A stretch of DNA of 64,000 nucleotides. Source: a virus. Below the pieces are notes generated by a model. That model ran no database searches. It saw only the letters and a program-made list of their open reading frames with translations, and was not told the origin of the DNA. The stretch covers positions 7,260-71,259 of the IMG/VR virus record IMGVR_UViG_3300027740_000183; one strand, given 5' to 3'. This document shows, one piece after another, positions 59,082 to 59,389 of the stretch (the stretch's first letter is position 1; each line of letters opens with the position of its first letter). The translations under genes were made by a program, and so were the position numbers.

Positions 59082-59199
59082 ATGATGTGCAGGAATCACA
59101 CCTACTCTCTTGGCTAATGCACCAAGCGCTTTTCTACCGTTTTGTGAGAGTTTTTTCATTAAGCGCTTAATGAAAAAACAAAACGTTAAGCTACATCAC
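59082..59199 (-). ncRNA. tRNA-like RNA 2 with hairpin inserted in D-loop
   Basis: Acceptor GTGATGT/ACATCAT, D stem GCTT/AAGC, AC stem CTTGG/CCAAG (8-nt loop), T stem GTAGG/CCTGC with loop TGTGATT. Confidence 0.7.
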
Positions 59200-59389
59200 G
59201 GTGAGGGCGGAAAGATTTGCACTTTCATTTCTAGCACAGCCGGTAAGATAGCTATGGGCAGGTGATTTCTACTGATAATTTGTTAGTTTGGCTAACTCAG
59301 TAGAGATGCTCCTAGTGTTTTATCTCTAGATGTGTTATAAGTTAATCATTCTTGTAATACATTTCTGGAATTCTTTAAACTACACCCTC
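59200..59389 (-). ncRNA. tRNA-like RNA 1 with large D-loop and anticodon-arm insertions
   Basis: Acceptor GAGGGTG/CGCCCTC+ACC, T8A9, D stem GTTT/AAAC, AC stem CTAG/CTAG, 4-nt variable loop, T stem GAAAG/CTTTC with loop TGCAAAT. Confidence 0.7.

Follow-up and report, generated by a model that had tools for sequence, protein, structure and literature searches.

An abutting pair of D-region-expanded tRNA-like RNA genes in a huge-phage genome fragment

The minus strand of a 64,000-nucleotide (nt) stretch of viral DNA, hereafter the window (bases 7260-71259 of the 137-kb IMG/VR virus record IMGVR_UViG_3300027740_000183), carries two abutting RNA elements, RNA1 (59200..59389) and RNA2 (59082..59199), in which long hairpins are set into the frame of a transfer RNA (tRNA). 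We conclude that they are a real, non-random pair of unusual, D-region-expanded RNA genes derived from tRNA or transfer-messenger RNA (tmRNA), for which a function is plausible. The explanation we favor, to which we grant about an even chance of being right, is that they are co-transcribed genes from the tmRNA/tRNA cluster that related phages carry downstream of their R2K gene, and that their products are non-decoding mimics processed by RNase P. Speaking for this are a promoter, the lack of a plausible open reading frame (ORF), intact acceptor/T-arm stacks, the cloverleaf of RNA2, the grafted hairpins, and the genomic slot that the pair occupies. The tRNA ancestry of the two RNAs is supported by a deletion test on RNA2, by a T-loop type found across the lineage, and by the tmRNA/tRNA slot. 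The record has a CheckV completeness of 35% and is accordingly a fragment of a huge phage; positions prefixed G000:C1 lie outside the numbering of the window.

Architecture and transcription of the pair

RNA1 is 190 nt long and folds with z = -2.4. As a preliminary description of this DNA had stated, its outer parts are those of a tRNA: a 7-base-pair (bp) acceptor stem (59389-59383 / 59209-59203; GAGGGTG/CGCCCTC, including one G-U; pair probability ~1.0), T8A9, a T arm with a 5-bp stem and 7-nt loop (59226-59210; GAAAG-TGCAAAT-CTTTC; pair probability 0.89), and an ACC end (59202-59200). Its interior holds three hairpins. Hairpin A (59324..59370) is weak, AT-rich and spans 47 nt; the possible D stem that closes around it, GTTT (59380-59377)/AAAC (59320-59317), holds up only in part, being iso-energetic with the minimum-energy fold but reaching a pair probability of 0.12. 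Hairpin B (59259..59314) joins stems of 8 and 5 bp, with 6 nt bulged out of its 3' strand, at a pair probability of ~1.0, and the nested pairings described earlier, TCTACTGA/TCAGTAGA and GTTAG/CTAAC, are recovered at the same probability. The anticodon stem once proposed for RNA1, CTAG/CTAG enclosing 77 nt, must be given up: it costs 2.5 kcal/mol and has a probability of 0.01, and the fold instead favors hairpin C (59235..59256; 7-bp stem, 8-nt loop AUCUUACC; pair probability 0.92-0.99). Hairpin C, which ends 8 nt before the T arm, resembles an anticodon arm in that its loop has U at the second position, followed by CUU and A. Going by the predicted fold, RNA1 would thus be read as an acceptor, a D region expanded by hairpins A and B, an anticodon-like hairpin C, and a T arm.

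RNA2, which is 118 nt long and abuts RNA1, takes as its unconstrained minimum-energy fold (z = -3.5) a cloverleaf of four stems whose D loop carries a long hairpin, bearing out the earlier account of its stems and of its 8-nt anticodon loop. The fold comprises a 7-bp acceptor (59199-59193 / 59088-59082), a D stem (59191-59188 / 59131-59128), an anticodon-type arm (59126-59109; 8-nt loop UGCAUUAG) and a T arm with a 5-bp stem and the 7-nt loop TGTGATT (59105-59089). The hairpin (59138..59185) stands directly before the D-loop GGTAG and measures 48 nt, namely 8 bp, a 6-nt bulge on the 3' side, and 11 bp. The palindrome reported within it is present, although it is larger than stated, with 30 bp of perfect symmetry (59150-59179) in place of 28 bp, and it is unique in the 137-kb record. 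RNA2 has A8 only, and position 2 of its anticodon-type loop is G rather than U. All 21 of the 21 cloverleaf pairs are nevertheless intact despite at least four changed positions among the normally invariant loop nucleotides, which speaks for selection to keep them paired. The expansion of either RNA falls in the D region and amounts to between 48 and ~120 extra nt.

The pair lies behind a sigma-70-type promoter, P1 (59420..59447, minus strand; TTGACA-16 nt-TATGAT), which had been noted before and matches the consensus at 11 of 12 positions; transcription is expected to start at ~59412, leaving a leader of ~23 nt before RNA1. A second promoter on the same strand, P2 (59045..59073; TTGACA-17 nt-TATAAT; 12/12), begins 9 nt past RNA2 and marks the limit of the unit; a structured leader and a 70-amino-acid (aa) ORF are under its control. 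P1 and P2 together bracket 59389-59082; in the interval between RNA2 and P2 no terminator was found. The RNA strand of the region holds no frame of at least 30 aa, and the only ORF of that size on either strand is a 51-aa TTG frame on the opposite one. P1 is among 17 near-consensus sigma-70-type promoters in the 137-kb record, which also include the regions G000:C1 80215-80180, 79900-79866 and 79738-79703 (all minus strand). Several of the 17 have a common AAAAATAGG motif upstream of TTGACAA, and the promoter at G000:C1 79730-79703 (minus strand) is followed by a 36-nt repeat.

The claim that these are not ordinary tRNAs is well founded. ARAGORN, run with and without intron mode and in tmRNA mode, made no call in the window, and Rfam (at gathering thresholds, and at E up to 10 in 57500-60500) gave no tRNA match, so that neither element was called in these two of the checks the preliminary description had proposed. 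Both RNAs share with canonical tRNA (RF00005, including class II) an acceptor of 7 bp and a T arm whose stem has 5 bp and whose 7-nt loop carries T54, R57 and A58, and RNA2 adds to this likeness GGTAG in its D loop and the full set of four stems. The differences are equally clear. The extra helix stands in the D loop or D region and not in the variable region as in class II; hairpin C of RNA1 and the arm of RNA2 have 8-nt loops, whereas a canonical anticodon loop has 7 nt with U33 and a purine at 37; and neither RNA has the canonical T54-Psi55-C56-R57-A58 T loop (Psi, pseudouridine) together with a short D loop bearing G18G19. Both T loops deviate, as first described: TGCAAAT in RNA1 and TGTGATT in RNA2 each have G55, and RNA2 has U56 as well.

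A bare acceptor and T-arm pattern matches 112 times in the 137-kb genome, and the pattern alone therefore means little. Under a filter for a tRNA-type T loop (T, G/T, C/T, R, A), four matches remain, which are the two tRNAs called by ARAGORN, RNA1 and RNA2. In 100 simulated first-order Markov genomes the mean number of filtered matches was 1.4, and an abutting pair arose in none (0/100). Removal of 46-48 nt leaves RNA2 with the size and shape of a tRNA, and without its D-loop hairpin ARAGORN calls it a tRNA at 95% of the default threshold; in a control for this deletion search, 3 of 300 random 131-mers were so called. With double deletions in its interior, RNA1 yielded 685 ARAGORN tRNA calls at the default threshold; shuffled interiors (n=20) had a median of 0 and never more than 82, a soft control in that any hairpin can replace an arm.

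The tmRNA/tRNA slot of related phages

The most informative result for RNA1 and RNA2 is their genomic context. An R2K-clade ATP-grasp gene (60560-59760, minus strand) ends 371 nt before the start of RNA1 on the same strand, and related huge-phage loci, labeled L with a number, were found through this gene. In 11 of them (L005, L008, L010, L012, L014, L015, L017, L022, L034, L057, L058) a tmRNA lies downstream of R2K on the same strand, ~40-700 nt past the gene, with tRNAs further downstream in several. RNA1 and RNA2 thus sit in the R2K-downstream tmRNA/tRNA slot of their relatives. In the nearest relative (L004, 67% identity in R2K), which has only the R2K gene in common with the present phage, an odd 72-nt tRNA with a 6-nt loop is found at the R2K stop codon.

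The unusual T loops also recur in the lineage. That of the L057 tmRNA, TGCAAAT, is identical to that of RNA1, and that of the L005 tmRNA is one base off; the 3' end of the L057 tmRNA reads ACCT instead of ACCA. A T loop beginning U54-G55 is common to RNA1, RNA2, these two tmRNAs, a tRNA in L030, and a promoter-driven tRNA of the phage itself (G000:C1:79747-79818, minus strand). The last has T loop TGCAATC, the 8-nt anticodon loop AUCGUAUG and acceptor CCCCGGA, and it stands between two strong promoters in the same promoter-RNA-promoter layout as RNA1 and RNA2. The L030 tRNA (L030:4677-4750) has the same CCCCGGA acceptor, with T loop TGCGAGC and a 6-nt loop. By their sequences, the two look like a conserved, non-canonical G55 tRNA family. 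The presence of G55 in the phage's own tRNA and in relatives' tmRNAs indicates a lineage trait of tRNA-like genes and not random damage. Some relatives (L010/L011:12696-12771; L046/L047:4597-4670) have tRNAs with the anticodons UUA, of ochre-suppressor type, and UCA, which ARAGORN labels SeC (selenocysteine). These hint at stop-codon reading in some relatives, whereas the present phage reads well under table 11. An alternative genetic code was set aside for it, since table 11 leaves long ORFs open, up to 825 aa.

A structural scan of the related loci uncovered further tRNA-like elements, all of them missed by ARAGORN. The 103-nt element in L022 (L022:7847-7949) abuts the 3' end of the tmRNA and has a G3:U70 pair and a D-region hairpin; its first 17 nt read GGGTGTGTAGTTTAGAG, against GAGGGTGTAGTTTAAAG in RNA1. 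Its acceptor mirrors that of the tmRNA, including G3:U70, with two compensated transitions. It looks as if it arose by insertion or by duplication at the 3' end of the tmRNA, with TCCACC repeated, and the sister contigs L014 and L015 are without it; a search for its relatives through its tmRNA returned only the four contigs already found. The L022 element also parses as a tRNA when a different hairpin is deleted, so the analogues are themselves ambiguous. In L058 a 77-nt element (L058:7401-7477) follows the tmRNA, with G3:U70, an encoded CCA and an acceptor that mirrors that of the tmRNA. L063 holds a 118-nt element with a 20-bp hairpin in the D loop (L063:4809-4926) and a 165-nt element (L063:5180-5344) inside a run of odd tRNA-like elements. 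This run (L063:4540-5345) comprises ~5 elements downstream of tRNA-Gly and tRNA-Met, none of them called by ARAGORN, and several have long inserts or 9-12-nt anticodon-type loops. On their modeled structures, the L022, L058 and L063 elements would be analogues in the same style as RNA1 and RNA2, with no homology implied.

Searches for homologues of the pair itself came back empty. Distant blastn of 58300-59500 against a phage database gave no match, an exact 27-mer of RNA1 does not recur in IMG/VR, locus searches with R2K or FEN as the single protein found nothing, and blastn of both RNAs against 47 related huge-phage records returned chance words inside coding sequence only. Covariance models, whose construction the preliminary description had called for, were built from the single sequences and run over 50 related huge-phage records, and no insert-bearing homologue emerged: the RNA1 model matched nothing, and the one match of the RNA2 model was a low-scoring, 73-nt tRNA-Asn-like gene with T loop TGCGATC. 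Among public sequencing runs, the locus occurs in one soil-metagenome DNA sample only and in no listed RNA-seq run.

On the minus strand the gene order is the R2K ATP-grasp gene, a 115-aa frame, RNA1 and RNA2, the 70-aa ORF, a HEARO RNA, short ORFs, and a 5'-3' exonuclease. The 70-aa ORF (58844-58632), an orphan, lies behind P2, and the leader between them (58850-59040) is ~190 nt long, is comparatively rich in GC (47.5%), ends at the ribosome-binding site of the ORF, and matches no Rfam family even at E up to 10. No homologues were found for either the 115-aa or the 70-aa frame. The full-length HEARO RNA (IscB/IsrB omega-type; 58340-58601) scores 87 bits, above the gathering score. The short ORFs beyond it encode 188, 186 and 76 aa (57930-58496, 57212-57772 and 57016-57246, all minus strand), and one is weakly HNH-like, namely the first, for which PHROG gives a weak HNH match and Pfam none. 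Together the RNA and these ORFs could be a fragmented or miniature IscB-like element in a huge phage.

Known parallels and competing explanations

The position of RNA1, right after R2K and on the same strand, is that of the tmRNA in the phage clade, but the molecule itself is a poor fit. The tmRNA family (RF00023) is expected to have G3:U70, the alanine-identity pair of the acceptor stem, as the relatives' tmRNAs do, whereas RNA1 and RNA2 both have G3-C70. RF00023 has no match in the record at E up to 10, ARAGORN -m finds no tmRNA in the window, and local alignments of RNA1 with six relatives' tmRNAs do not rise above shuffles. Neither SmpB, a CCA-adding enzyme, RtcB nor Ro60 has a match in the 137-kb record, itself ~35% complete. 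A Y RNA (YrlA) partnered with Ro60 was considered and rejected: the same incomplete record has no TROVE match, Rfam gives no Y RNA match, and the RNAs end on the acceptor stem, whereas a Y RNA has its ends on the Ro-binding stem.

Two published systems come closest, the species 1 and 2 RNAs of phage T4 and, after them, a tmRNA reduced to its tRNA-like domain (TLD); the T4 likeness is one of architecture. The T4 RNAs (rnaC, 139 nt; rnaD, 119 nt; AF158101 70908-71171) are likewise tandem, ORF-free and of similar size, and lie directly behind tRNA genes. In rnaC the T arm and closing stem are kept, and long hairpins replace the D and anticodon arms. Both T4 RNAs are stable and mature with the tRNA cluster through host tRNA-processing enzymes, and to our knowledge their function is still not known. 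They differ from the present pair in following eight normal tRNAs, whereas RNA1 and RNA2 stand alone behind their own promoter, and in the T loop, which is the canonical TTCGAAT in rnaC and has G55 here. There is no sequence similarity between the two pairs, blastn-short finding only 7-9-nt words. The TLD-only tmRNA of Mycobacterium phage DS6A (tmRNA Website 11587) has a tRNA-like frame and no tag frame (PMC4131195, PMC11915505), and a similar TLD-only molecule inhibits host tmRNA whether or not it can be charged, perhaps by titrating SmpB (PMC4131195). RNA1 resembles it in lying in its relatives' tmRNA slot, a comparison of architecture and position and not of DS6A sequence; no annotation of the TLD-only gene was found in the first 12 kb of the DS6A genome. 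The DS6A type has little beyond the TLD, whereas RNA1 carries ~150 nt of internal hairpins, has G3-C70 and matches no tmRNA model. A man-made parallel is offered by engineered tRNA scaffolds such as Spinach-tRNA, in which an RNA module is set in a tRNA frame that supplies processing and stability (PMC5397188). The RNA2 insert, running from D-loop position 16/17 to G18, occupies the very site that was tried for D-Spinach.

Several observations weigh against reading the pair as functional mimics. RNA1 is without a tag frame, G3:U70, sequence similarity to tmRNA or a model match, and so fails the defining tests of a tmRNA. With no homologues in the phage database, IMG/VR or the 50 related records, neither RNA has support from covariation, and the flanking ORFs are orphans too, so the block in its entirety may be of recent origin or quickly decaying. 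The G+C content of the pair (38-39%) is close to that of the genome (36%), against 53% in the two ARAGORN tRNAs. In E. coli, an engineered D-loop insert at the site used in RNA2 made tRNA-Tyr undetectable, the D-loop version of Spinach-tRNA not being stably expressed (PMC5397188), and a natural D-loop graft is consequently unexpected. The 30-bp perfect palindrome, moreover, would also suit a site that acts at the level of DNA.

The main rival draws on many of these same points and stays serious, even if we consider it distinctly less than probable: RNA1 and RNA2 would be decaying relics of the slot's ancestral tmRNA and first tRNA, which lost function, gained insertions and drifted, the promoter being a leftover or serving downstream genes. 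The missing homologues and the near-average G+C agree with decay, as do the loss of the invariant T-loop, U8 and U33 positions, the want of any tmRNA hallmark in RNA1, the interval before P2 in which no terminator was found, and a neighborhood of orphan ORFs and a mobile-element RNA (HEARO). Decay sits poorly, however, with the state of the frame, in which the loops have changed and the stems have not (21/21 pairs in RNA2; acceptor and T arm in RNA1). It must also account for inserts that are clean, stable hairpins rather than scrambled sequence, for a promoter at 11/12 consensus, and for a G55 T loop that apparently working tRNA and tmRNA genes of the lineage have as well. RNA1 and RNA2 might also be unusual working decoders, expanded tRNAs that are aminoacylated and used by the ribosome, with hairpin C of CUU (Lys) type and the RNA2 arm of CAU (Met/Ile) type; with their 8-nt loops they would read quadruplets or shift the frame, or withstand anticodon nucleases of the host. 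A tRNA that ARAGORN calls in the phage itself does combine an 8-nt loop with a G55 T loop, and loops of 6 or 8 nt occur in tRNAs of related phages. In hairpin C the second loop base is U and CUU is followed by A, and RNA2 keeps GGTAG past its insert. We nonetheless hold decoding to be improbable. RNA2 has G instead of U at position 33 and a U after the triplet, 48 to ~120 extra nt fall in the D region that forms the elbow, and G55 (with U56 in RNA2) removes the standard contacts between D loop and T loop; a D-loop insert destabilized the E. coli tRNA (PMC5397188), and tRNA finders accept neither RNA.

Two further alternatives remain. In one, the elements would act as DNA and not as RNA genes: the palindrome and hairpins, flanked by the two promoters, would bind protein or serve in recombination, and the tRNA pairings would be incidental; the palindrome is indeed perfect through its center, and the acceptor and T-arm pattern by itself is frequent. 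Chance pairing is nevertheless hard to reconcile with a complete cloverleaf as the minimum-energy fold of RNA2, with the ARAGORN deletion test that RNA2 passes, with the absence of an abutting pair with tRNA-type T loops from all 100 simulations, with synteny to tmRNA and tRNA genes, and with a palindrome that occurs once in 137 kb, so we rate DNA-level elements as very improbable. The other, that these are intron-containing tRNAs whose inserts are spliced out to give tRNAs of normal size, was raised in the preliminary description and is the one we find hardest to credit. It has in its favor that RNA2 minus 46-48 nt is of tRNA size and shape. The inserts, however, are plain D-region hairpins of 48 to ~57 nt (the weaker one 47 nt), far below the size of group I introns, which are of at least 200 nt and lie in the anticodon loop. 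No Rfam Intron_gpI match appeared at E up to 10, no bulge-helix-bulge motif was seen, a search of the available 137 kb for RtcB came back empty, the promoters are bacterial, and spliced products would in any case keep the G55 T loops and 8-nt loops.

A candidate route to tRNA-shaped mimics

If the pair does encode processed mimics, as we favor, its maturation could follow familiar lines. RNase P recognizes the acceptor/T-arm stack, and it would cut 5' of G59389 and 5' of G59199. The cut at G59199 would leave RNA1 ending in ACC, with one A needed from a CCA-adding enzyme, a scheme resembling that of T4 tRNA dimer precursors, and the 3' end of RNA2 would be trimmed by host tRNA 3'-processing enzymes. 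The products would be stable, tRNA-shaped RNAs of ~190 and ~118 nt without normal decoding. Their acceptor/T-arm module could then be shown to proteins that handle tRNA or tmRNA, and the hairpins may be either added binding modules or tolerated expansions. Such a mimic might titrate a partner, by analogy with the TLD-only tmRNA and SmpB, which is the most concrete functional precedent. It might equally serve as a putative decoy for tRNA-directed nucleases, an option neither firmer nor weaker than titration. Phage tRNA clusters have long been known to hold extra stable RNAs, T4 species 1 and 2 among them, and recent work has presented phage tRNAs as weapons against tRNA-directed host defenses.

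A more far-reaching proposal, which we put forward tentatively and consider distinctly less than probable, is that the tmRNA/tRNA slot of this lineage was turned into genes for natural "tRNA scaffold" RNAs, in which the frame does no more than secure RNase P/CCA processing and stability and the hairpins grafted at the variable pocket of the D loop are the working parts. A protein-binding or dimerizing palindromic arm could then sequester a host factor such as SmpB, a tRNA-modifying enzyme or a tRNA-directed defense nuclease, and together with the L022, L058 and L063 elements the pair would belong to a broad, uncatalogued class of phage non-coding RNA.

What distinguishes this locus is a promoter-driven pair standing in place of a conserved tmRNA/tRNA cluster, with only the tRNA processing frame kept. 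If functional, the pair would be a compact natural model for the reuse of a tRNA frame to display other RNA modules, and designers of RNA scaffolds could learn from a hairpin at D-loop position 16/17, the site where an engineered insert failed in E. coli. The pair would likewise be a model for phage interference with ribosome rescue or tRNA surveillance, and for the reasons that gene finders arrive at too low a count of tRNA-like genes in huge phages.

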